The position numbers and the translations under genes were made by a program. 64,000 bases of DNA from an uncultured Candidatus Saccharibacteria bacterium (GTDB taxonomy: Bacteria; Patescibacteriota; Minisyncoccia; Phycocordibacterales; GWA1-40-21). The notes under the pieces are model-generated. The model was not told the DNA's origin and made no database searches. It saw only the letters and a list, made by a program, of their open reading frames with translations. Below, piece after piece: positions 7,993 through 62,087 of the stretch. The stretch's first letter is position 1; the number at the start of each line of letters is the position of its first letter. The stretch is from positions 103 to 64,102 of the forward strand of contig CAZSCE010000001.1 in the NCBI GenBank assembly GCA_964605355.1. Reading direction: 5' to 3'.

Positions 7993-8017
7993 AGTTTTGT
8001 TTGATTAAGGAAGCAAG

Positions 8018-8092
8018 AATTGTTTGAATTTTTTATAGCGTCGGAGCCCACCCGTACTCGGGAAGGGTGAAGCTTAAAAAATTTAAATAATT
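8018..8092. repeat. REP/MITE-like structured intergenic element, copy 1 of 3 (core 8037..8073)
   Basis: The 37-nt core AGCGTCGGAGCCCACCCGTACTCGGGAAGGGTGAAGC is shared with copies at 47447..47483 and 60748..60785. It is flanked by the A+T-rich inverted arms AATTGTTTGAATTTTTT and AAAAAATTTAAATAATT. It lies about 50 nt upstream of the frr start. Confidence 0.7.
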
Positions 8093-8118
8093 TTGATTCC
8101 TGATTACTAATAAATTAA

Positions 8119-8841
8119 TTATAGCACAAGTGCCAGATGTTCCAAAATGACTTTGATGGAGGGTGACTCATCATTGGCATAACTGATGGCTTTCTCAATA
8201 TCTTCAATAGCCAGGAGGCTGCCACTGCGCGCATTATGTGCGTTCTTTACCTTTAGCGTTGATTTAATAACCTTCTCAATATTTTTCAAAAAATTAATAG
8301 CATCACTTTTATTCAGCTTTTCATCTTTTATATCTTTTACAATTTTAGCCACCTGAGTTAAACGCTTCCCCACCTTAGCATTTAGGAATTCTTCAGCTTG
8401 GGCCAGTGGCGTGGCAAACTTACCCTCACCCTTACTAATTATTAATCTGGACTTCAAAGTAGGAAGTAAATCAGAAAATGAGGGGAGAATTAAAAAGAAA
8501 ATAGTATCCGCTCGTGGTTCCTCAAAAATTTTTAATAAAGAATTCTGCGCATCTTTGGTCATAAAATTAGCAGAGATAACAAAAACCTTTCTCTCATACT
8601 TTATGGGCATATTTAAATGCGCTTCATTTATAGCCCGACTATCAATAATTTTAAAAACGTTAAAATCCCCCTGCCAAAAATCCGGATTGTTGGTAACAGG
8701 AAATTTCAAATCCTTCTTTAGGAAATCAAAAAGCTCTTCCTTAACTTTATCCTTGGCCCCTAAAACGCCGTAGGCATGGTGAAGTTGCCCTCGCTTCTTG
8801 TAGTTCTCCCTGATCTGCTTCATAGGTGTAGTATAGCACAC
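8119..8841 (-). CDS. holB: DNA polymerase III delta-prime-like clamp-loader subunit (minimal form)
   Basis: LHHAYGVLG (degenerate P-loop region), NSLLKIFEEP (the NALLKTLEEP box) and LPTLKSRL (SRC-like motif). 240 aa with a truncated C-terminus. Confidence 0.55.
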   Translation of the reverse strand: MCYTTPMKQIRENYKKRGQLHHAYGVLGAKDKVKEELFDFLKKDLKFPVTNNPDFWQGDFNVFKIIDSRAINEAHLNMPIKYERKVFVISANFMTKDAQNSLLKIFEEPRADTIFFLILPSFSDLLPTLKSRLIISKGEGKFATPLAQAEEFLNAKVGKRLTQVAKIVKDIKDEKLNKSDAINFLKNIEKVIKSTLKVKNAHNARSGSLLAIEDIEKAISYANDESPSIKVILEHLALVL

Positions 8842-13803: not shown

Positions 13804-14659
13804 AACTAATATTGCCTTTTTTGGAAATTCAAAATTCTCGGTTTTTTGTTTGGAAGAAATGAAAAATCAGGGTTTGACACCAGCGGTGGTTATTACCACA
13901 CCAGATAAACCCACGGGGCGAAAAATGCTTTTAACTAAAAGCGAAACCAAAGTGTGGGCAGAAAATAATAATGTGCCTTTCATAGAACAAGATAAATTAA
14001 AAGATGAAACTTTCCTAGAAAAACTAAAACAATATGATTTATTTCTTGTGGCCTCATACGGCAAAATCGTGCCAAAAGTTATTCTGGATATGCCTAAATA
14101 TGGTGTTTTAAACATCCACCCATCCCTATTGCCAAAATACCGCGGCCCTTCCCCACTTCAGGAACAAATTCTAAATGATGAAAAAAATGTGGGTGTGACC
14201 GTGATGCTTATGGATGAGCAAGTGGATCATGGACCAATTATTGCTCAGGAAAAACTGCCTGCCCCGAGCCTGTTGAAGGGGCCGGCTAATTTGATTGAAC
14301 TAAAAGAAATCACTGCAAAAACCGGAGTAAAATTGCTGGTAGAAAATTTAGATGCTTGGATTAATAAAAAAATAGAAGCAGAAGAGCAAGATCATGATCA
14401 AGCTACTTTTACTAAAAAGGTGGAGAAGAATGATGGTTTATTAGACCTAGAATTTGGGAAGCCTTATGAGAATTATTTAAAAACCAAGGCTTATTACCCC
14501 TGGCCCGGCACTTTCTTCTTTATTTCTAAGGGTGACAAAAAAATCCGTGTGGTTATCAAGGAATCAGAATATATTGACGGGGCCTTTCATATCCTAAAAG
14601 TTATCCCCGAAGGTAAGAAAGAAATGAGTTATGGTGATTTTCTTCGTGGTCTAAATTAA
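13793..14659 (+). CDS. fmt: methionyl-tRNA formyltransferase
   Basis: The formyltransferase N-domain (IAFFGNS...VLNIHPSLLPKYRGPSPLQ) and the C-terminal Fmt domain are present. The gene is adjacent to def, the usual def-fmt order, and overlaps it by 11 nt. Confidence 0.9.
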   Translation: MINKTNIAFFGNSKFSVFCLEEMKNQGLTPAVVITTPDKPTGRKMLLTKSETKVWAENNNVPFIEQDKLKDETFLEKLKQYDLFLVASYGKIVPKVILDMPKYGVLNIHPSLLPKYRGPSPLQEQILNDEKNVGVTVMLMDEQVDHGPIIAQEKLPAPSLLKGPANLIELKEITAKTGVKLLVENLDAWINKKIEAEEQDHDQATFTKKVEKNDGLLDLEFGKPYENYLKTKAYYPWPGTFFFISKGDKKIRVVIKESEYIDGAFHILKVIPEGKKEMSYGDFLRGLN

Positions 14660-14660
14660 A

Positions 14661-14729
14661 AAAACCTCAGGAATTTCCTCGTAGTGATTAGTCCGCGTTA
14701 AACGGAGAGGATTTTCCTGAGGTTTTTTT
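14661..14729. terminator. long bidirectional hairpin AAAACCTCAGGAA..TCCTC / GAGGA..TTCCTGAGGTTTTTTT
   Basis: An imperfect stem of about 20 bp lies between convergent fmt and the PPIase gene, with T/A runs on both sides. Confidence 0.6.
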
Positions 14730-14731
14730 GA

Positions 14732-15388
14732 TTATTTTACAATCACCTTTGTCACAATAACTGGTGTGAGTGGTAAATCATTTTGACCAGTTTGGGAATT
14801 TTCAATTTTTTCCACCACATCCATACCTGCCGTCACCTTACCAAACACAGTGTGTTTACCAATGAGCCATGGTGTCTCTAGTGCAGTGATAATAAAGAAT
14901 TGGCTACCGTTAGTATTTGGACCAGAATTTGCCATAGCTATCATACCCTTTACCATTGGTAAACTATTTGGCTCATCGGCAAACTTATAACCAGGACCAC
15001 CAGTACCATAAACAGAGGCATCATCACCCTTGGTATATGGATCCCCGCCTTGGATCATAAAACTCTTGATCACCCGGTGAAATTTGGTATTATCATAAAT
15101 ACCGTCTTGAGCTAGCTTTACAAAGTTAGCCACTGTCTTTGGTGCCTTGGCCGGATAAAGCTCTAAATCAATATTTCCTAAACTGGTTTCTATAGTTACT
15201 AATTGTTTTACTTCGGCCATAACTTTTATTGTTTTAACTTCTTTATTTTCTATTAAAGCGGTTGACGTTCCGGTTTGAGAAGCAGGTTTACTTACGCCGG
15301 AGGCATAACCAATTACTAAAACGATAATCACAATAACTATCACATAAAAAATTGCCCCTGGATTAATTATTTTTTTCCAATCTTCCAT
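14732..15388 (-). CDS. cyclophilin-type peptidyl-prolyl cis-trans isomerase, membrane-anchored
   Basis: N-terminal TM helix, then HRVIKSFMIQGGDP...GTGGPGYKFADE...FFIT...HTVFGKV, the cyclophilin signature. Confidence 0.85.
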   Translation of the reverse strand: MEDWKKIINPGAIFYVIVIVIIVLVIGYASGVSKPASQTGTSTALIENKEVKTIKVMAEVKQLVTIETSLGNIDLELYPAKAPKTVANFVKLAQDGIYDNTKFHRVIKSFMIQGGDPYTKGDDASVYGTGGPGYKFADEPNSLPMVKGMIAMANSGPNTNGSQFFIITALETPWLIGKHTVFGKVTAGMDVVEKIENSQTGQNDLPLTPVIVTKVIVK

Positions 15389-21668: not shown

Positions 21669-21725
21669 AAGGTGTATATTACACGATTTTTAAATAAATG
21701 CAAGAACAAGGCAATAATTGTTTGA

Positions 21726-21779
21726 TTTTAAAATGTCTGGTTGAGCCGTTCTATGGGCGACCCGAGGACTTTTAAAATT
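21726..21779. repeat. left copy of a roughly 54-bp inverted repeat pair flanking rmuC (partner 22940..22994)
   Basis: TTTTAAAATGTCTGGTTGAGCC...GGCGACCCGAGGACTTTTAAAATT is the reverse complement of 22940..22994 at about 45/54 positions. The divergence is confined to the central 9-10 nt. Confidence 0.8.
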
Positions 21780-21802
21780 AAATAATTATTGCCCTGTTCG
21801 TA

Positions 21803-22864
21803 TTATTCTTCCGTCTCTGGGCGGGAAACCTCCAGTAATTCAATGTCTGATTCTACGCCAGTGATGCGCACCACATCTTTATCAATCTTTTTAAATTCTT
21901 TATTGGACGCATTAAAATGATTCACGGTGGTGGCCAGGGCATTACCCAGCTTGCCTTGATACTCCTCAAAGGTCTTTAAATGCTTTTGCAGACCCTCTAC
22001 ATTCTTCCTTATTTCCATAGCACTTTCCTCTATCTGCATAGCCTTTAGGCCCTGCAAAACAGTCTGCAAATAAGCTAAAAATGAAGTGGGTGACACAATT
22101 ATCACCTTGTATTTATTGGCCGCGCGCTGAATTAAATTATCCGTTTCCTCCGTAATAGCCCCAATTTTATTTACCAGTAAATCATAATAAATAGCCTCGT
22201 GCGGGATGAACATAAAGGCAAAATCCATGGTTCCCTCTTTAGGCCGAATATATTTTGAGGTTTCTTGGATGCGTAATTTCAAATCATTTACAAAAGCTTT
22301 TTCCAGCTTTTCTTTTTCCTGTGGATTCTGCTCCACACTTAATTTATTATAATTCTCCAAAGAAAATTTGGAGTCCACGGGGATTATTTTTTCTTTCACA
22401 AAAACGGCGGCGTCCACTATCTCACCATTAGCAAAAGCATATTGCATTTTATATTGCGTGGGTGCTAAAACATTTTGTAAAAGAGTTTCTAGATAATATT
22501 CACCCAGTATTCCGCGGTGCTTTGGGTTCTTTAAAATATCCTGGAGGGACTGGAGCTGATCCGCAAAACTAACTACTTGTTTATTTGTCTCATCTAGTTT
22601 AGTCAGGCCTTGGGTCACATCCTTTATTAACTTAGCTGATTCACTAAACTGATTCCTAACTGATTCATTCATATGCTTGGCATTCTCACTAATTTTACTA
22701 TCCATAGTGCGGGAGAGCTCATTTATCTGCTGTAAAATAAGGTTTAGGCCGGTATCGTCCTTCTTTTCCTCAGCGGGGGTCTTCTTACTATTTATATTTA
22801 GCCAAATAAGAATAGCTAATGCCAGAAAAACTAATATTAAAACAATAATTATAATTATTTCCAT
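21803..22864 (-). CDS. rmuC: DNA recombination protein RmuC
   Basis: N-terminal TM helix, a long coiled coil, then KHRGILGEYYLETLLQNVL (the RmuC RGxxGExxLE motif) and DFAFMFIPHEAIY. The start is set at the internal Met (MEIIIII..., 22864), which lies just behind a perfect TATAAT. The track start at 22978 lies inside the upstream inverted repeat. Confidence 0.8.
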   Translation of the reverse strand: MEIIIIIVLILVFLALAILIWLNINSKKTPAEEKKDDTGLNLILQQINELSRTMDSKISENAKHMNESVRNQFSESAKLIKDVTQGLTKLDETNKQVVSFADQLQSLQDILKNPKHRGILGEYYLETLLQNVLAPTQYKMQYAFANGEIVDAAVFVKEKIIPVDSKFSLENYNKLSVEQNPQEKEKLEKAFVNDLKLRIQETSKYIRPKEGTMDFAFMFIPHEAIYYDLLVNKIGAITEETDNLIQRAANKYKVIIVSPTSFLAYLQTVLQGLKAMQIEESAMEIRKNVEGLQKHLKTFEEYQGKLGNALATTVNHFNASNKEFKKIDKDVVRITGVESDIELLEVSRPETEE

Positions 22865-22939
22865 ATGTAGAGTATTATACCAATTAAAGGCAAAATGTGA
22901 TAGTATTTTAAGTATATAAGCACGGAAGTAAAGATGTTT

Positions 22940-22994
22940 AATTTTAAAAGTCCTCGGGTCGCCAACAGTAAGGCTCAACCAGACATTTTAAAAT
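22940..22994. repeat. right copy of the inverted repeat pair flanking rmuC
   Basis: See 21726..21779. It lies about 75 nt upstream of the inferred rmuC start and promoter. Confidence 0.8.
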
Positions 22995-23027
22995 CAAACC
23001 TCTCTACTTCCTTAATAATATATTACG

Positions 23028-36007: not shown

Positions 36008-38017
36008 CTAGGATTTTTTACTAATCAATTTATTTAGTTCTATGAGTTCATCACGGAGGATGGCGGCGGTTTCAAAATCTAGTATTTTTACAGCAGCATT
36101 CAGCTGAATTTCTTTTTGCTTAATAAGTTTTTTAGGATTTTTTAGTACTCCCGGCTGATCAATTCGTAATAATTCCTTGACCGCTTTATCATGTGGGGAC
36201 TTCAGATTCTCCATAATATCATTTATCTTTTTAATAATAGTTTTTGGAGTAATACCGTGTCTGGTATTATAAGCCACCTGGATAGCGCGCCTTCTGTTTG
36301 TCTCATCCATAGCCCGCTTTATAGAACCGGTAATATTATCGGCGTACAAAACCACTTTGCCTTTTACATTTCTGGCGGCCCGGCCAATAATTTGAATCAG
36401 GGAGGTATCACTACGCAAGAAACCTTCTTTATCTGCATCTAAAATACCAATAAATTCTACTTCGGGTAAATCCAAACCTTCACGCAAAAGGTTTACTCCC
36501 ACAATACAATCAAACTTCCCTTTTCGAAAGTCTGTCAAAATACCAATCCGGTCAATTGTTTTTATATCACTGTGTAAATATTCTGCTTTCACACCTTTCG
36601 CTTTCAAATATTCACTGAGATCCTCAGCCATTTTTTTGGTCAAAGTAGTGGCTATCACGCGCCCGCCACCTTTAATCACGGTCTCTGTCTCCGCAATAAA
36701 ATCATAAACCTGGCCTTTATACTTGCCCTTTTCAATTATGCCACGGATTTCCACCTCCGGATCAATAAGACCGGTGGGCCTAATGACTTGCTGTACCACC
36801 TGTTTACTTTTTTCTAATTCATAAGTGCTTGGGGTGGCAGAAGTATAAATTACTTGACCAACTCTCTCCACAAATTCTGGGAATTTTAACGGGCGGTTAT
36901 CACTGGCTGATGGTAAACGAAAACCATGATCAATTAAATTTTTCTTACGGGAAGCATCCCCCGCATACATACCATTTAGTTGTGGCACGGTCACATGTGA
37001 CTCATCAATAATAGTTAAAAAATCTTCAGGAAAATAGGCCAGCAAAGAATCCGGCGGTTCACCCGGCATTTTACCAGAAAAGTGCCTAGAATAATTCTCA
37101 ATACCGTTACAATAACCTACCTCTTTAATTAAAGATAAATCATAACTGGTTCGGCGTTTTAGGCGCTCCGCTTCCAAAATTTTCCCCTCTCTAGTTAATT
37201 TCTTTAACTGACCATCAAGCTCGGCTTTGATACTTGAAATGGCGCGCTTTTTCTCATTTTCGTTGGTAATAAAGTGTTTGGCGGGAAATAAAAAGAAAGT
37301 TTTCTCCTCACTCACTATCCGCCTGGTGATGCCATCAATTTTATAAATAGTTTTAATTTCATCCTCTTGAAAGTCAATTCGGTAAATTAATTTTTCATTC
37401 ACCGGCATAATTTCCAGGGCGTTACCCACGGCGCGGAATTCTCCTGGTTTTAAATCCGTATTATTTCTTTCAAAATGAATATTGATAAATTTACGGATCA
37501 TCTCGGCGCGGGAAATTTGCATCCCCACAGAGATTTTTAAATTTACTTTTTCATATTCGGCCGGAGAACCCAAACCATAAATACAAGAAACTGAAGCCAC
37601 AATAATCACATCTTTCCTAGACAAAAGGGCCTGGGTGCTGGCGTGGCGCAGACGGTCAATCTCTTCGTTGATCATGGCTTCCTTTTCAATATAAGTATCC
37701 GTCACAGGAATATACGCCTCAGGCTGATAATAGTCATAATAAGAAACAAAATAATGAACAGCGTTATGCGGAAAAAATTCCTTATATTCTTGAGCTAATT
37801 GTGCCGCCAGGGTTTTATTATGAGCAATCACCAGGGTAGGCCGTTGAACTTGCTGTATCACATTGGCCACCGTAAAAGTTTTCCCGGATCCGGTTACGCC
37901 TAAAAGAGTCTGATCTTTCAAACCTTTTTTCACCCCTTTTACCAGCTTCTCAATAGCCTCTGGCTGGTCTCCCGCGGGCTTATATTCAGCCTTAATTTTA
38001 AATAAATTCTGTTGCAT
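36008..38017 (-). CDS. uvrB: excinuclease ABC subunit B
   Basis: FKIKAEYKPAGDQPEAIEKLVKGVKKGLKDQTLLGVTGSGKTFTVANVI is the UvrB N-terminus. Helicase motifs and the C-terminal UvrB/UvrC interaction domain are present. The start is set at the internal Met (MQQNLFK). Confidence 0.95.
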   Translation of the reverse strand: MQQNLFKIKAEYKPAGDQPEAIEKLVKGVKKGLKDQTLLGVTGSGKTFTVANVIQQVQRPTLVIAHNKTLAAQLAQEYKEFFPHNAVHYFVSYYDYYQPEAYIPVTDTYIEKEAMINEEIDRLRHASTQALLSRKDVIIVASVSCIYGLGSPAEYEKVNLKISVGMQISRAEMIRKFINIHFERNNTDLKPGEFRAVGNALEIMPVNEKLIYRIDFQEDEIKTIYKIDGITRRIVSEEKTFFLFPAKHFITNENEKKRAISSIKAELDGQLKKLTREGKILEAERLKRRTSYDLSLIKEVGYCNGIENYSRHFSGKMPGEPPDSLLAYFPEDFLTIIDESHVTVPQLNGMYAGDASRKKNLIDHGFRLPSASDNRPLKFPEFVERVGQVIYTSATPSTYELEKSKQVVQQVIRPTGLIDPEVEIRGIIEKGKYKGQVYDFIAETETVIKGGGRVIATTLTKKMAEDLSEYLKAKGVKAEYLHSDIKTIDRIGILTDFRKGKFDCIVGVNLLREGLDLPEVEFIGILDADKEGFLRSDTSLIQIIGRAARNVKGKVVLYADNITGSIKRAMDETNRRRAIQVAYNTRHGITPKTIIKKINDIMENLKSPHDKAVKELLRIDQPGVLKNPKKLIKQKEIQLNAAVKILDFETAAILRDELIELNKLISKKS

Positions 38018-38101
38018 TTGATTTGTGATTATGATACATTTTGAGAGGAAAAGCAAGAAAGGTTCGTGGCTAAATAAACAACAACATGTGGGGGTTTTAC
38101 A

Positions 38102-38419: not shown

Positions 38420-38522
38420 ATTCAAAATAAATACAACCCCCTTAATCCCCCTTGTCAGGGGGAGATCAGAAACTCCAGCTTTTCCCCTCCCCTGACAAGG
38501 GGAGGGTTAGGGAGGGGTTTTC

Positions 38523-39740
38523 TCATCTCTTATATTTTTCTAAAAATTCTTCCTTATATTCTTCAAATTTATTATCTAAAATAGATTGGCGGATCTGAGC
38601 AACCAGGCCCACCAAAAAATGAATGTTGTGGATGGAGGCGAGCGTACCCGCGAGCATTTCTTTACCATGAAATAAATGGCAAATGTAGGAGCGAGAATAA
38701 TGCTGACAAGTATAACAGGTACAGTCACTTTCTACCGGGCTGACGTCATCTCTAAATTTAGTATTTTCAATATGGATTTTTCCAGACTTGGTATACAGCG
38801 TGCCATTTCTCCCCAGGCGTGTAGGCAAAACACAATCAAATAAATCCACCCCGCTTTCCACCCCCATAAATAAATCCTCTGGCTCCCCTATACCTAACAA
38901 ATGCCGGGGCTTTTCTTCAGGTAATATTTCATTTACCCACCTTACCGCGGTCTGCATATCTTCTTTGGCAAAAGAACCGCCAATACCATAACCGTCAAAA
39001 GTTTTTCCCTCCACCTCTAATTCCGAAATAATTTTGGCTGATTTTTTTCTCAGTCCTTCATCCCGCCCACCTTGTACAATACCAAATAAAGAAACTTTAT
39101 CTTCTGTATTTAGTTTTAAATGCTCTTCAAGCGAGCGTTTGGCCCACGCGTGCGTGCGGTCCAGGGCCTCACCTTGATATTTCAAATCTTCAGTGGGAGC
39201 GGTGCATTCATCAAAAGCAAAAATAATATCCGCGCCTAAATTGTGCTGAATCTGAATTGATTTCTCCGGCGTAATATAATGAACAGAGCCATCCAAATGT
39301 GAAGTAAAAGAAACTCCGTCTTGACCTATTTTTACTAATTTTGGCGCCAAGGAATCATCAAACCGTTCCGGGATTAACAAATTTGGGTCTGTCACCTGGA
39401 GCACTTTGGAAATTCCCTTACCATAAGCGGCCCCCAGGGAAAATACCTGGAATCCCCCAGAGTCCGTCATTGTAGGCCCGGTCCAATTCATCATTTTACC
39501 CAGTCCCCCATTTTTCTTTACTATTTCATCCCCGGGTTGTAAATATAAATGATAAGTATTAGCCAAAACTACCTGCGCCCCGGCTTCTTTCACTTGATCA
39601 GTATTCACAGACTTTACCGTGGCCTTGGTTCCCACCACCACAAAAGCCGGGGTTTCTACCACCCCATGCGCGGTGGTAATTTTCCCCACGCGCCCCATTT
39701 TCCCCTCTAGCTTTTTTTCTATCTTAAAGTCTAATGACAT
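38523..39740 (-). CDS. tgt: queuine tRNA-ribosyltransferase
   Basis: VVETPAFVVVGTKATVKSV...LANTYHLYLQPG...TDSGGFQV and the zinc site CTCYTCQHYSRSYICHL. Confidence 0.9.
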   Translation of the reverse strand: MSLDFKIEKKLEGKMGRVGKITTAHGVVETPAFVVVGTKATVKSVNTDQVKEAGAQVVLANTYHLYLQPGDEIVKKNGGLGKMMNWTGPTMTDSGGFQVFSLGAAYGKGISKVLQVTDPNLLIPERFDDSLAPKLVKIGQDGVSFTSHLDGSVHYITPEKSIQIQHNLGADIIFAFDECTAPTEDLKYQGEALDRTHAWAKRSLEEHLKLNTEDKVSLFGIVQGGRDEGLRKKSAKIISELEVEGKTFDGYGIGGSFAKEDMQTAVRWVNEILPEEKPRHLLGIGEPEDLFMGVESGVDLFDCVLPTRLGRNGTLYTKSGKIHIENTKFRDDVSPVESDCTCYTCQHYSRSYICHLFHGKEMLAGTLASIHNIHFLVGLVAQIRQSILDNKFEEYKEEFLEKYKR

Positions 39741-46592: not shown

Positions 46593-47162
46593 TTAGTATT
46601 TACGAATTACCCCTTTGACAATAGCTGCTATTTGAAGTTCGTGTTCTGGGTAAATAGGGGAAAAATCCTTGTTTGCGGGCTCCAGATATATTTTACCTAG
46701 CCTGTTCCGGTAATATTTCATAGTCCAGCCACCATCCACAGAAGCAATAACAATCTCACCATCCCGGGGCTCTCTCTTGGTTTTCTCAGCAATCACCATA
46801 TCACCTTCGTGAATACCAGCATCAATCATGGAGTCACCTTTTACTTTTAATAAATAAGAGGAATCTTTATCCCTAATCAAATAATCATCAATATTTATGG
46901 TATCCAGATCAATTTCCTCTGCGGTGGTGGGAAAGCCGGCCTCTACCAAACCCAGAAGTGGCACCTCGCCAAGCAACTTATTGGGAATCAAATGCCCGCT
47001 ACTATCCTTATCTAGTACACCGTCATCAATCAATTTATGAATTACTTTGGCTACCGCATTTTTAGATTTGAAGCCAAGAAGCTTCATCATTTCCGTATAA
47101 ACCGGCATGCGCTTGTTAGCTTTGTAAAAGGAGATTATTTTGTTTTTATAATTATCCAGCAT
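46593..47162 (-). CDS. lexA: LexA repressor (S24 peptidase)
   Basis: An N-terminal winged HTH, the Ala-Gly cleavage site (VEAGF), VKGDSMIDAGIHEGD (catalytic Ser), and the catalytic Lys in GEIVIASVDGGWTMKYY. Confidence 0.9.
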   Translation of the reverse strand: MLDNYKNKIISFYKANKRMPVYTEMMKLLGFKSKNAVAKVIHKLIDDGVLDKDSSGHLIPNKLLGEVPLLGLVEAGFPTTAEEIDLDTINIDDYLIRDKDSSYLLKVKGDSMIDAGIHEGDMVIAEKTKREPRDGEIVIASVDGGWTMKYYRNRLGKIYLEPANKDFSPIYPEHELQIAAIVKGVIRKY

Positions 47163-47418: not shown

Positions 47419-47510
47419 AAAGAGAAAATAATGTTTACAATTTTCAGCGCGTAGGACCCACCCGTACTCGGGAAGGGTGAAGCGTGAAAATTTAAATATT
47501 GTTTTCTCTT
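47419..47510. repeat. REP/MITE-like structured element, copy 2 of 3 (core 47447..47483), in the lexA-operon 5' UTR
   Basis: AGCGCGTAGGACCCACCCGTACTCGGGAAGGGTGAAGC with arms ACAATTTTC / GAAAATTTAAATATTG and the outer complementary pair AAGAGAAAA / TTTTCTCTT. Confidence 0.7.
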
Positions 47511-47527
47511 ATATTATTATGTAGTTA

Positions 47528-47556
47528 AGTATAGGTGAACGCTCGTTCACCGTCAA
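47528..47556 (-). promoter_or_regulatory. SOS promoter: TTGACG - 17-nt spacer - TATACT with a LexA (Cheo-type) operator filling the spacer
   Basis: The minus strand reads TTGACGgtgaacgagcgttcaccTATACT. The 18-bp perfect palindrome GGTGAACGCTCGTTCACC (47534..47551) contains GAAC-N4-GTTC, the Gram-positive-type LexA box. Confidence 0.7.
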
Positions 47557-59886: not shown

Positions 59887-60711
59887 CTATATTTGTTTCT
59901 TTCCTACCACTATTTTATTATCAAAGCGTAAATCAATATAATTTATGGTACCGGCGTTTTTAGCCAGATCCAGATCCCCGGTTTGGATGGCGGTAAATAA
60001 ATTACCAAAGGATTGATCTAAACTGTTCTTTAAATTAAAAATTAAAGTTGGCCCATTTTCCAAACCAAATTTAAAATCCCGCTCATCATAGGCCACCGTG
60101 GTGACTTTTATTCCCTTTTTATCCAAAACATCTATCAAGCTGAATATTTGAGTATAAAGTGTGGGTGTCAGGAAATATCCACCAATAGTACTCGTGGTAG
60201 TACCATAATCCCGAATAAACATATTACCGGAAAAAGTAGGTGCTAAATTATAAATGAGGCCGGTATTATCTACAAAATAGCAGTCAGCCTTTACCGCCGG
60301 ATCAGACCCACACCAAGCAGAATGCGCCTTGCGCTCCTCCACCTTTATGGATATCTGTTGCCAATTATCAAAATTAATATCCACACTTTTTATAGTCTTT
60401 AATTTAGTCAGTATATCCTGCTTGATTTTAAGACGCGGAAAGATCAAGGAATTACTCCGAGAAAATAAATACCAATACCGCCCGGCCATGTCCCGGTTAG
60501 CAATTTTTAAAATATCATCTGTGGCCACCGCGGCATTACCGGAAACTATAATAGTCTGAATTTTCACTTTCTCATGACTGGAGAAAATAGCCAAAGTAAA
60601 AATAATCACCGCCAGTAAAATAAAAATAATAGTCAGTCTAATGTAAAACAACCTTCGCCTTTTCAGCCGGACTTGTGACGGGCCTAAATTTAAATTTCTA
60701 GTAACTGACAT
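59887..60711 (-). CDS. ftsQ: FtsQ/DivIB-like cell division protein (POTRA domain)
   Basis: N-terminal TM helix, then IQTIIVSGNAAVATDDILKIAN... (POTRA) and ISIKVEERKAHSAW (the ExRxPxAxW-like box). Confidence 0.5.
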   Translation of the reverse strand: MSVTRNLNLGPSQVRLKRRRLFYIRLTIIFILLAVIIFTLAIFSSHEKVKIQTIIVSGNAAVATDDILKIANRDMAGRYWYLFSRSNSLIFPRLKIKQDILTKLKTIKSVDINFDNWQQISIKVEERKAHSAWCGSDPAVKADCYFVDNTGLIYNLAPTFSGNMFIRDYGTTTSTIGGYFLTPTLYTQIFSLIDVLDKKGIKVTTVAYDERDFKFGLENGPTLIFNLKNSLDQSFGNLFTAIQTGDLDLAKNAGTINYIDLRFDNKIVVGKKQI

Positions 60712-60720
60712 ATTTCTTTA

Positions 60721-60812
60721 GAGCTCTGGTATTGTTCTAATTTTTTGTCGCGTAGGACCCACCCGTACTCGGGAAGGGTGAAGCGCAAATAATTTGAATA
60801 ATACCAGAGCTC
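60721..60812. repeat. REP/MITE-like structured element, copy 3 of 3 (core 60748..60785) between serS and the ftsQ-like gene
   Basis: GTCGCGTAGGACCCACCCGTACTCGGGAAGGGTGAAGC with arms CTAATTTTTT / AAATAATTTGAATAAT and the outer 13-bp complementary pair GAGCTCTGGTATT / AATACCAGAGCTC. Confidence 0.75.
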
Positions 60813-60821
60813 TTAATAATA

Positions 60822-62087
60822 CTACTTCGTTATCACACTTTTCCCCATATATTTTTGTAGCACCTCCGGTATTTTAATAGACCCATCAGCTTGCTGGAAA
60901 TTTTCTACCAAGGAAACCAAGATACGCGGTGTAGGGATGGCGGTACAGTTCAACGAATGAGTATAGTGAGTTTTCCCTTCGGCATCACGATATTTAATAT
61001 TTGAACGGCGGGTTTGGAAATCATGAAAATAGGAAGCCGAGGAAATCTCCCGGTATTTATTTTCTTTTGGCACCCAGAGCTCGATGTCATATTTCTTTAC
61101 TTGTCCCAGGCCCAAATCCCCACCACAGTTCACCACCGTATGATAAGGGATGCCCAGTGACTCAATAAATTCTTGAGTGTTATGATTTACCTCCTCATGA
61201 TATTTTACGGACTCCTCGTGGCTGGCCTCACAAATGATCACTTGTTCTAATTTATAAAACTCATGAACACGGATAAGTCCCTTCACATCTTTAGTATGAC
61301 TACCCACTTCACGCCTATAACAAGGAGAAAAGCCTAAATACCTCTTTGGTAATTCCTTCTGATCCAAAATTTCACCGGAGTGATAAGCCATGAGCGGTAC
61401 TTCTGCAGTACCAGCTAAATAATCACCGTCCTGAGTTTTATACAAATCATCTTCACCTTGGGGTAAATATCCGGTACCAAGCAGGGCTTCTCTTCTATCT
61501 ATAATTGGTGGCAACACTGGGATAAAATTTCTATTGGAGAAAAATTCCATCGCATAATTCCAAATAGCCAGTGAAAGTCTGGCTCCGTCACCCATCAAGA
61601 AATAACCACGAAAGCCGTGTACTTTTATTCCACGTTCAAAATCCACCATTTTCAAACTAGTCATAAGCGCCACGTGATCCTTGGCTTCAAAATCAAATTT
61701 TGGTTTTTCACCCCAAACAAAAATTTCCTTGTTATCAGCATCAGTGTCACCCTCGGGCACAGTCATATCCGGAATATTTGGCACCTGGAGCATCAGGCCC
61801 TGCCACTGCTTCATAATTTCTTTTAATTCTTCCTCACCTTTCATCAAAGCATCCTTTACCACTTTCATCTCATCTATCAGTTGCTTCTTTTCTACCGGAT
61901 TTTGGATTTTAATTATTTCATCACTAAATTTATTTTGCTCCGCTTTCTTATTTTCAGTAAAAGTTAGTAATTCCTTTCTCTTGTCATCTATAGTAAGAAG
62001 GGCAGATACATCAAATGTAAGATGTTTCTTTTTGGCCCCCGCTTCAATCAAATCTTTATTTTCTCTAATGAATTTTATGTCTAACAT
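60822..62087 (-). CDS. serS: seryl-tRNA synthetase
   Basis: N-terminal coiled-coil tRNA-binding arm and a class II core (FRRE, GxGxxR-type motifs). 421 aa. Confidence 0.95.
   Translation of the reverse strand: MLDIKFIRENKDLIEAGAKKKHLTFDVSALLTIDDKRKELLTFTENKKAEQNKFSDEIIKIQNPVEKKQLIDEMKVVKDALMKGEEELKEIMKQWQGLMLQVPNIPDMTVPEGDTDADNKEIFVWGEKPKFDFEAKDHVALMTSLKMVDFERGIKVHGFRGYFLMGDGARLSLAIWNYAMEFFSNRNFIPVLPPIIDRREALLGTGYLPQGEDDLYKTQDGDYLAGTAEVPLMAYHSGEILDQKELPKRYLGFSPCYRREVGSHTKDVKGLIRVHEFYKLEQVIICEASHEESVKYHEEVNHNTQEFIESLGIPYHTVVNCGGDLGLGQVKKYDIELWVPKENKYREISSASYFHDFQTRRSNIKYRDAEGKTHYTHSLNCTAIPTPRILVSLVENFQQADGSIKIPEVLQKYMGKSVITK

Follow-up and report, generated by a model that had tools for sequence, protein, structure and literature searches.

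A long hairpin between serS and an ftsQ-like gene belongs to a family of dispersed palindromic repeats in Patescibacteria

What is a long, nearly perfect hairpin doing in the short spacer between serS and an ftsQ-like gene? The hairpin lies in a 64,000-nt stretch of DNA (contig CAZSCE010000001.1 of assembly GCA_964605355.1, positions 103 to 64,102; hereafter the window). An earlier note on this DNA had called it the third copy (copy 3) of an element like a repetitive extragenic palindrome (REP) or a miniature transposable element with inverted repeats (MITE), and had proposed that it might serve as the terminator or stabiliser of serS and as part of the 5' region of the gene downstream. We collected further copies of the element from metagenomes and compared their structure, insertion sites and strand preferences. 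The reading that we favour, with some reservation, is that copy 3 is one insertion of a non-autonomous palindromic element, mobile or recently mobile, that is widespread in Patescibacteria (the candidate phyla radiation, CPR). Such an element is probably selfish mobile DNA and not a purpose-built terminator.

Copy 3 is a 94-nt hairpin at 60720..60813, delimited by its minimum free energy (MFE) fold and by R1, a covariance model that we built from aligned copies. We call plus (+) the strand that reads GCGT..GAAGC, which is antisense to both serS and the ftsQ-like gene. A single long hairpin is the MFE fold of 60715..60818, with -51.8 kcal/mol on the + strand (z = -9.53; 0 of 200 shuffles equalled it) and -46.1 kcal/mol on the - strand. 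As the earlier note had described, there is an outer stem of 13 bp, in which GAGCTCTGGTATT (60721..60733) pairs perfectly with AATACCAGAGCTC (60800..60812); a 14th pair, A60720-T60813, extends it. A repeat search of the window returned the arms 60714-60747 and 60786-60819, with 85% complementarity. In the window the 27-mer CCCACCCGTACTCGGGAAGGGTGAAGC has three exact matches, at 8047, 47457 and 60758, always on the + strand, against an expectation of 0.00 from 100 shuffles, which bears out the statement that copy 3 is the same element as the one noted at 8018..8092. With R1, only the three known copies score high in the window (80-94 bits), copy 3 reaching 93.8 bits (E 2.4e-17). The description of copy 3 as having the longest outer stem is right for the uninterrupted run of pairs (13-14 bp) but not for overall length, which is similar in all three hairpins.

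The three window copies align around an invariant centre, GCGT[A/C]GGA(G)CCCACCCGTACTCGGGAAGGGTGAAGC, with semi-conserved AT-rich arms of ~16 nt on each side and an outer stem of ~10 bp whose sequence differs in each copy and whose pairing is always kept. The same anatomy holds across the family, which we analysed in an alignment of 45 distinct copies; 22 core bases were preset by the pattern used to retrieve the loci, and the inner arms were not. The hairpins have a median length of 94 nt (range 83-133). Their common centre reads CGC-GT[A/C]GGA(G)-CCC ... GGG-T-[G/A/T]AA-GCG and is joined to the AT-rich inner arms, and the outermost 9-12 bp and the apical stem vary and are still paired. Predicted partners are paired in 94.4% of the alignment cells, compared with 70.6 +/- 0.8 in column shuffles and 32-47% when the partners are slid. 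Both sides have changed in 343 cells, compared with 105 in shuffles, and compensatory double changes occur in 22 of the 31 predicted pairs.

Mapped onto copy 3 (+ strand), the outer stem consists of the copy-specific 5' arm GAGCTCTGGTATT, whose columns covary across the alignment, and the 3' arm AATACCAGAGCTC, placed from the sequence and the fold. Inside it, the inner AT-rich arm runs as GTTCTAATTTTTTGT at 60734..60748, semi-conserved in the family with the consensus ..AAATTTTT.., and returns as CAAATAATTTGAAT at 60786..60799. The conserved core, invariant in the alignment apart from the substitutions and apical variants described here and subject to the 22 preset bases, occupies 60749..60785. 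It is built from a CGC/GCG helix (60749-51 / 60783-85), an asymmetric purine-rich internal loop GTAGG/GAA that contains a GTAG tag (60752-56 / 60780-82), an ACCC/GGGT helix (60757-60 / 60776-79), an A/AA loop (60761 / 60774-75) and a replaceable apical hairpin CCCG-TACT-CGGG (60762..60773). Elsewhere in the family the apical stem appears as CCCG/CGGG, CCCCG/CGGGG, CCGCG/CGCGG or CCTG/CAGG, with pairing kept by compensation; GatB orthologues differ in this stem by one such swap, C-G to G-C, and the apical hairpin is deleted in two copies (L014:2011-2108 and L035:427-524; L numbers denote our metagenome loci). The tag is GTAG in copy 3 (60752..60755) and copy 2, and CGTC in copy 1 and most metagenome copies. 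Over 71 matches the free position in GCGTNGGA is only ever A or C, with the flanking GCGT and GGA preset by the search pattern. When run on the loci, R1 recovered additional copies that the search pattern had overlooked. Their core differs at A60761 (G), at G60780 (A or T, which turns GAAGC into AAAGC or TAAGC) and in the apical hairpin, and nowhere else: both GC helices and the GT[A/C]GGA // NAA loop stay constant.

Presence or absence of the element differs at orthologous sites in three places: the serS spacer, the holB-frr spacer and a site within a cysteine desulfurase gene. The gene order DprA / serS / ftsQ-like / Dus is kept in relatives, and the content of the serS spacer differs. In the window the spacer holds the element (family 1), antisense to serS. 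In L073 (SerS 93% identical to that of the window) and L074 (91%) it is occupied by a different hairpin family with the boxes GTCTGGTT and CGAGGAC, and in L077 (83%) by this second family, whose apical loop there contains a further hairpin. The spacer of L075 (86%) is empty and 40 nt long, and L076 (84%) has no spacer, its serS and ftsQ-like genes overlapping. The nested hairpin of L077 (3770..4010) is oppositely oriented to its host, and the nesting suggests that hairpin loops can themselves be insertion targets. The spacer that holds copy 1 in the window, between a holB-like gene and frr, is likewise empty in L079 and L080 (37-43 nt), with no palindrome there. Two non-orthologous loci, L047 and L048, carry almost identical full-length hairpins within unrelated wider flanks, from which we conclude that whole hairpins get copied. 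The sole regularity at insertion sites is an A-rich 5' flank, with A at position -1 in 32 and at -2 in 26 of the 45 copies.

Members of the family also occur in frame within long conserved open reading frames (ORFs) of the metagenome loci. We found them in genes for GatB (L022, L051 and L059, at an identical site in all three), KsgA/RsmA (L025, L026), cysteine desulfurase (two sites in L038 and L049, one in L059), an XerC-like recombinase (L060, L027) and RecG (L062). The inserts break the Pfam matches GatB_N, RrnaAD and Aminotran_5 into 2-3 stretches. Desulfurase site 2 contains the element in L038 and L049 but not in L059; what sets them apart, between AAGAAAAAA and TAAG, is a segment made up of 9 nt and the entire hairpin with its outer stem. 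With few exceptions the intragenic copies run antisense to their host gene, and in translation the antisense copies always encode ..QNFSRFTLPR[SNG][AG][VA]GSDASQNF.., though that strand is open in all three frames. Searched against a collection of 5.8 billion sequences, a profile of this peptide was uninformative, with one 77-aa protein only among 36 candidates. The desulfurase genes hold smaller inserts as well: that of L059 (4613-5917, +) has a GC-rich palindromic insert of 30 nt, TCCGCCAAAGGCGGACCAGCCTCTGGTTGG, which adds SAKGGPASGW, and in L038 (1024-2400, -) a 21-nt hairpin, CTGCCTGCCGGCGAGGCAG.., is inserted within the element copy.

The element is not symmetric with respect to strand. 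Outside the core, stem mismatches read on the GCGT..GAAGC strand comprise 43 G·T and 14 A·C under symmetric scoring (binomial p = 1.5e-4, in which orthologous copies are not independent). Sorted by local gene direction, the G·T:A·C ratio is 24:7 for antisense, 6:1 for sense and 13:6 for mixed contexts. Because the wobble bias is equal whichever way the genes run, it does not come from folding of host mRNA, and it points instead to a single-stranded intermediate that is specific to one strand. In 38 of 47 copies the + strand gives the more stable fold, and the internal loops are purine-rich on this same strand. Relative to GC skew, orientation is biased ~2:1, with negative flanking skew in 34 of 50 copies; all three window copies lie on the C-rich strand, in one orientation, within uniform skew. 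Crude ORF calls place 10 copies between convergent, 19 between tandem and 4 between divergent genes.

Multiple copies, lineage-specific gain and loss, copying of whole hairpins, in-frame copies, the GTAG/CGTC tag and the strand-specific wobble bias together lead us to place the element with the REPs, the Rickettsia palindromic elements (RPEs) and the enterobacterial repetitive intergenic consensus (ERIC) sequences. The published account of tagged REPs records their tags, G·T pairs, a tendency to lie downstream of ORFs, and copies within genes for repair and RNA-related functions (Di Nocera et al. 2013, PMC3733652). REPs of the CGTC type have no known transposase, and RPE-4 and RPE-6 have been equated with them (PMC3733652). 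Our element shares with REPs an unpaired GT[A/C]G-type tetramer beside a GC-rich imperfect stem-loop, and G·T pairs in the stems (PMC3733652). It is likewise mostly intergenic and downstream of ORFs, favouring convergent and tandem spacers over divergent ones, with occasional in-frame copies, notably in DNA-repair and RNA-related genes, and no transposase within the unit. It differs in that the tagged stem-loop tops a 94-nt hairpin with AT-rich arms and the tag sits within an internal loop. The core stem-loop (60757..60779) is GC-rich and, at 23 nt, compares with the 20-40 bp GC-rich palindrome of a REP unit, whereas the repeated unit is 94 nt long and its AT-rich arms are conserved too. All copies are singletons, without the inverted dimers known as bacterial interspersed mosaic elements (BIMEs) or REPINs; the only close pairs are those in the desulfurase genes, with cores 336 nt apart in L038 and ~350 nt apart in L049, both in the same orientation. 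The A/T first stem pairs and CCA tail of the CGTC family are absent, a weak search of ~0.5 Mb found no REP-associated tyrosine transposase (RAYT), and the host phylum is Patescibacteria.

RPEs, reportedly described by Ogata and colleagues in 2000, are said to be ~100-nt palindromes that lie between genes and also in frame within conserved genes, adding a peptide of ~30 aa, their mobilising enzyme being unknown. By this description the family (not copy 3 itself) resembles them in size and in its in-frame insertion into conserved protein genes. It differs in its host lineage, in the combination of copy-specific outer arms with a conserved centre, and in the single reading frame that antisense intragenic copies always use. 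ERIC sequences, or intergenic repeat units (IRUs), of enterobacteria are imperfect palindromes of ~100-130 nt with a conserved central inverted repeat, which lie in transcribed intergenic regions and form long RNA hairpins, and whose origin and mobility are unclear. The likeness, again by description only, is that of a long imperfect palindrome with a highly conserved centre. To our knowledge ERIC is conserved over its full length, restricted to Gammaproteobacteria and not found inside coding sequences, whereas our element has variable ends, Patescibacteria as hosts and copies in coding sequence. MITEs such as Correia/NEMIS of Neisseria are small, non-autonomous and strain-variable, and are co-transcribed as hairpins that RNase III can cut; they have terminal inverted repeats matching a parent insertion sequence and a defined target-site duplication (TA for Correia). 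Our element is small, non-autonomous and multi-copy, with presence/absence differences, and it lacks a conserved terminal inverted repeat and any target-site duplication that we could see. The label "REP/MITE-like" is therefore apt for a multi-copy palindrome that differs in presence between relatives and carries a REP-like tag beside a GC-rich stem-loop, but this is no textbook MITE, having variable ends, a conserved centre and no visible target-site duplication.

The proposal that copy 3 terminates serS was not supported. serS (60822..62087, - strand), upstream in the direction of transcription, has homologues, 93% identical, that carry Seryl_tRNA_N and tRNA-synt_2b domains; the ftsQ-like gene (59887..60711, - strand) encodes an FtsQ-type POTRA protein (Pfam POTRA_1, E = 3.8e-6). 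The end of the serS ORF at 60822 is 9 nt from the stem, and the ATG start codon of the ftsQ-like gene (60709..60711) is 9 nt from the hairpin base, close to the gaps of ~10 nt given earlier. We found no U-tract at copy 3: the stem is followed by TAAAGAAAT on the - strand and by TTAATAATAC on the + strand, and a terminator scan calls nothing, so the hairpin is not an intrinsic terminator at serS. In relatives without the element the two genes overlap or stand 40 nt apart, which suggests that they form one operon. More broadly, a hairpin kept by the host for a purpose, whether to terminate or attenuate serS transcription or to stabilise the ftsQ-like mRNA or regulate its translation, would suit the excess of copies downstream of ORFs and the position of copy 3 just ahead of a start codon. 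It would also suit outer stems that elsewhere resemble bidirectional intrinsic terminators, such as AAAAAGCCCC..GGGGCTTTTG in L043, and likewise in L003, L011 and L014. Against it stand, besides the missing U-tract and the empty or absent spacers of L075 and L076, the positions of copies 1 and 2 in 5' untranslated regions (UTRs) behind strong promoter-like sites and the intragenic copies, which cannot terminate transcription. In addition, L020, L044 and L053 have a terminator-like hairpin of their own beside the element. We regard this explanation as very unlikely. Copy 3 may have a lesser role, as an mRNA stabiliser, a processing site or an influence on the 5' region of the ftsQ-like gene. 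Copy 3 would be transcribed within the - strand serS/ftsQ-like mRNA as a hairpin of ~-46 kcal/mol without a U-tract. There it could at most determine processing or stability, by being cut by an RNase III-type enzyme or by blocking 3' exonucleases, and it may hinder initiation at the nearby AUG.

The strand asymmetry raises the alternative that the copies are structured RNA genes or cis-antisense RNAs expressed from the GCGT..GAAGC strand, with the internal loop binding a protein or making a tertiary contact and the stem serving as scaffold. Read as RNA, the 43:14 excess becomes one of G·U-compatible over A·C mismatches that is independent of gene direction, the more stable fold is on the right strand, and only that strand has purine-rich loops (GUAGG/GAA, and GAA/GUA in the outer stems of one subfamily). 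The core is also better conserved than the coding flanks in orthologues, and directly after the element on the same strand L020, L044, L053 and L048 (3630-3660) have a separate, classical terminator-like hairpin (AAAACATCAAGAAC..TTCTTGATGTTT; AAAAGGCGAAC..GTTTGCCTTTT). Yet that strand has no conserved promoter upstream of the element, and scanning for promoters near each of the window copies yielded none that fits. Many copies are in frame in essential genes, the serS spacer is empty or held by the other family in close relatives, and the apical hairpin can be deleted. Rfam did not recognise the element either: at the gathering threshold, Rfam 15 finds nothing but tRNAs anywhere in the window, and with relaxed E-values the best models near copy 3 and the GC-richer copy in L025 are generic long hairpins (Phe_leader, miRNA precursors) with 15-28 bits against gathering scores of 55-184. 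On balance an RNA gene seems unlikely to us. A site acting as DNA, that is, a cruciform or motif bound by a chromosome-organising, replication, recombination or DNA-uptake protein and selected in place, would account for a core that is conserved in position even within coding sequence, for occurrence independent of transcriptional context, for the ~2:1 orientation bias and for the shared orientation of the window copies on a strand of uniform skew. But the excess of G·T over A·C argues for a single-stranded fold and not for duplex recognition, the density is low and irregular with fast turnover between close relatives, and several unrelated core families of the same architecture fit parasitic families better than one host site. 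We give this explanation very little credence.

An insertion of a mobile palindromic element remains the reading that we prefer, and several observations weigh against it. No conserved terminal inverted repeat was found among the aligned copies, whose outermost 9-12 bp differ around an invariant centre, and no consistent direct repeat marks a target-site duplication in the filled/empty comparisons, where the intergenic empty sites have diverged and short duplications could escape; classical hallmarks of cut-and-paste transposition are thus missing. tblastn with IS608 TnpA and E. coli RAYT (approximate query sequences) against the window and 80 loci (~0.5 Mb, not whole genomes) was a weak test and gave a best E of 0.46. 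L049 and L059 are the closest pair of desulfurase loci (88.7% identity), so the empty site in L059 may be a precise loss and not the state before insertion. The ~2:1 skew bias is weaker than that of known elements targeting the lagging-strand template, and conserved internal loops rich in purines characterise structured RNAs more than they do selfish DNA. Finally, identity between orthologous copies is 94-100% in the core and inner arms, compared with 75-82% for housekeeping coding flanks and 46-67% for outer stems. It looks as if selection or gene conversion acts on each resident copy, which simple selfish DNA does not predict. A host function would fit this conservation; ascertainment explains part of it, through the 22 preset core bases, but the inner arms were not preset.

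If the element is mobile, it would be copied as an entire hairpin, with a trans-acting enzyme recognising the central module on the single-stranded GCGT..GAAGC strand. The most plausible candidate would be the sort of enzyme by which REPs move, an HUH/Y1-type one with single-stranded DNA as its substrate. New copies would land at A-rich sites, in intergenic spacers or tolerant protein loops, and resident copies would persist, their centre held constant by selection for recognisability or by gene conversion. The outer stem would only have to pair and could drift by compensatory change. Two other sources of the variable outer stems were considered and not supported. Insertion into pre-existing terminator hairpins does not agree with the empty sites of L079, L080 and L059, which have no palindrome and lack the whole hairpin, and as for inverted duplication of the target, the empty sites show no recognisable trace of either arm, the intergenic ones being diverged. 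Template-switch extension of palindromes, a mechanism described in PMC10710096, was also considered for the element.

The family appears to be undescribed so far; its kind is known (REP/RPE/ERIC-like) and its architecture apparently new. Our literature search found no match to the core sequence and no description of such an element in CPR. A bolder proposal, which we put forward tentatively and think doubtful, is that of a distinct undescribed class of "centre-conserved" CPR hairpin elements, with at least two unrelated core families of one architecture in the window and a central asymmetric-loop module that would be under purifying selection at each site, essential coding sequences included, and would act through its own strand irrespective of the direction of host transcription. 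If so, there would be a new, strand-specific and non-RAYT-like mobilisation system that recognises the middle of a hairpin and not its ends; alternatively, each copy would serve the host or the element itself, be it as structured antisense RNA or as a single-stranded DNA signal for replication or repair. The tiny, streamlined genomes of Patescibacteria are generally considered to contain little mobile DNA. A repeat that fills their short spacers, and recurs at the same spacer in different families, bears on how these genomes evolve and on their mRNA processing, and inserts of ~30 residues that split conserved domains bear on gene calling and protein modelling. The invariant centre, the free but paired ends and the strand-specific wobble offer a handle for finding the mobilising enzyme, and R1 makes a genome-wide census possible.

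We next consider where the element occurs. When one genome per species was scanned with an exact pattern, the core turned up, together with the AT-rich arms and with outer stems that differ from copy to copy, in four metagenome-assembled genomes (MAGs), of which one is labelled Paceibacteria, two Saccharibacteria (one with six copies) and one is unclassified. Five more pattern matches, in high-GC genomes, were without the context of AT-rich arms and outer stem, and we dismissed them as chance. A looser pattern that left the apical hairpin free returned 57 metagenome loci, many from Hainich groundwater. GC-richer subfamilies sit in different host genes, which indicates that several distinct Patescibacteria lineages carry the element. 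The nearest named SerS homologues of the window come from Nomurabacteria and Paceibacterota MAGs. The MAG GCA_964455475.1 ("uncultured Candidatus Saccharibacteria"; CAYVWL01), which contributed L078 (CAYVWL010000015.1), L003 and L014, encodes a ribosome recycling factor 88% identical to that of the window, so its Saccharibacteria label is doubtful; L078 also has the gene order MreB / holB-like / frr / M50, the same as the window. With MAG record labels in doubt, we do not claim spread across phyla. Searches of viral contigs, phage records and plasmid records gave no match to the element.

Resemblances of the core to known RNA structures did not stand up. By eye it is like helix III of 5S rRNA (CCACCCGU..CGGAAGUGAAAC), but a 5S profile (nhmmer) matches no copy at E <= 10, and local-alignment scores to 5S rRNA are equalled by 1-87% of shuffles. 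By inspection alone, none of three named motifs fits: a K-turn would have its G·A, at the second pair past the bulge, the wrong way round; the AGUA/GAA register of a sarcin-ricin/loop E motif is incompatible with both tag variants; and an 11-nt tetraloop receptor would have no CC partner for its GG. True 5S rRNA genes, recovered with the same profile, lie ~55 nt from a family-1 element in opposite orientation at L036:269-371, L066:909-1011, L067:1347-1448 and L072:9997-10098, which are one orthologous locus in four samples. There the element may be part of the rRNA operon transcript.

The other two window copies have neighbours of a different kind. Copy 1 (8009..8100, +; R1 85.2 bits) has the CGTC-tag variant of the core at 8038..8073 and is flanked by the holB-like gene, which encodes a DNA polymerase III delta'-like protein, and frr. 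A promoter-like site, TTGGAA-16-TGcTATAAT (8118..8145, -; 10/12 matches, extended -10), lies directly upstream, which places copy 1 in the frr 5' UTR; this sequence is conserved in L079, whose spacer is empty. Copy 2 (47420..47510, +; core 47449..47483; R1 80.1 bits) stands between a 71-aa ORF/lexA operon and a ZIP transporter gene. Just upstream of it is the promoter-like site TTGACG-17-TATACT (47528..47556, -; 10/12 matches), and between its -35 and -10 hexamers lies the palindrome GAACGCTCGTTC, which we take to be a LexA/Cheo-box-like site from the consensus GAAC-N4-GTTC. The same promoter-like site is upstream of the 71-aa ORF and the S24-peptidase (LexA-like) gene at 46593..47162, and the arrangement looks like an SOS-autoregulated operon in a Patescibacterium.

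We note several further hairpins in the window. A second family of long hairpins, with the same architecture and an unrelated core, TGATTTTAAAATGTCTGGTTGAGCC-loop-GGCGACCCGAGGACTTTTAAAATTAAA, has members at 21690..21812 (+; MFE -47.5 kcal/mol, z = -8.7) and 22912..23022 (-; -42.6 kcal/mol, z = -8.2). It is this family, with the boxes GTCTGGTT and CGAGGAC, that occupies the serS spacer of L073, L074 and L077. At 14654..14733 a long hairpin, AAAAAAACCTCAGGAATTTCCTC..GAGGATTTTCCTGAGGTTTTTTT, resembles a bidirectional terminator and separates two convergent genes at their 3' ends (-39.5 kcal/mol, z = -6.7). The palindrome at 38462..38529, GC-rich and imperfect, has G-run and C-run arms (..TTTTCCCCTCCCCT / AGGGGAGGGTTAGGGAGGGG..) and is unrelated to families 1 and 2. 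It is mostly intergenic, between the ORFs 38523..39740 (-) and 36008..38056 (-), downstream of the former and overlapping its last few bases.

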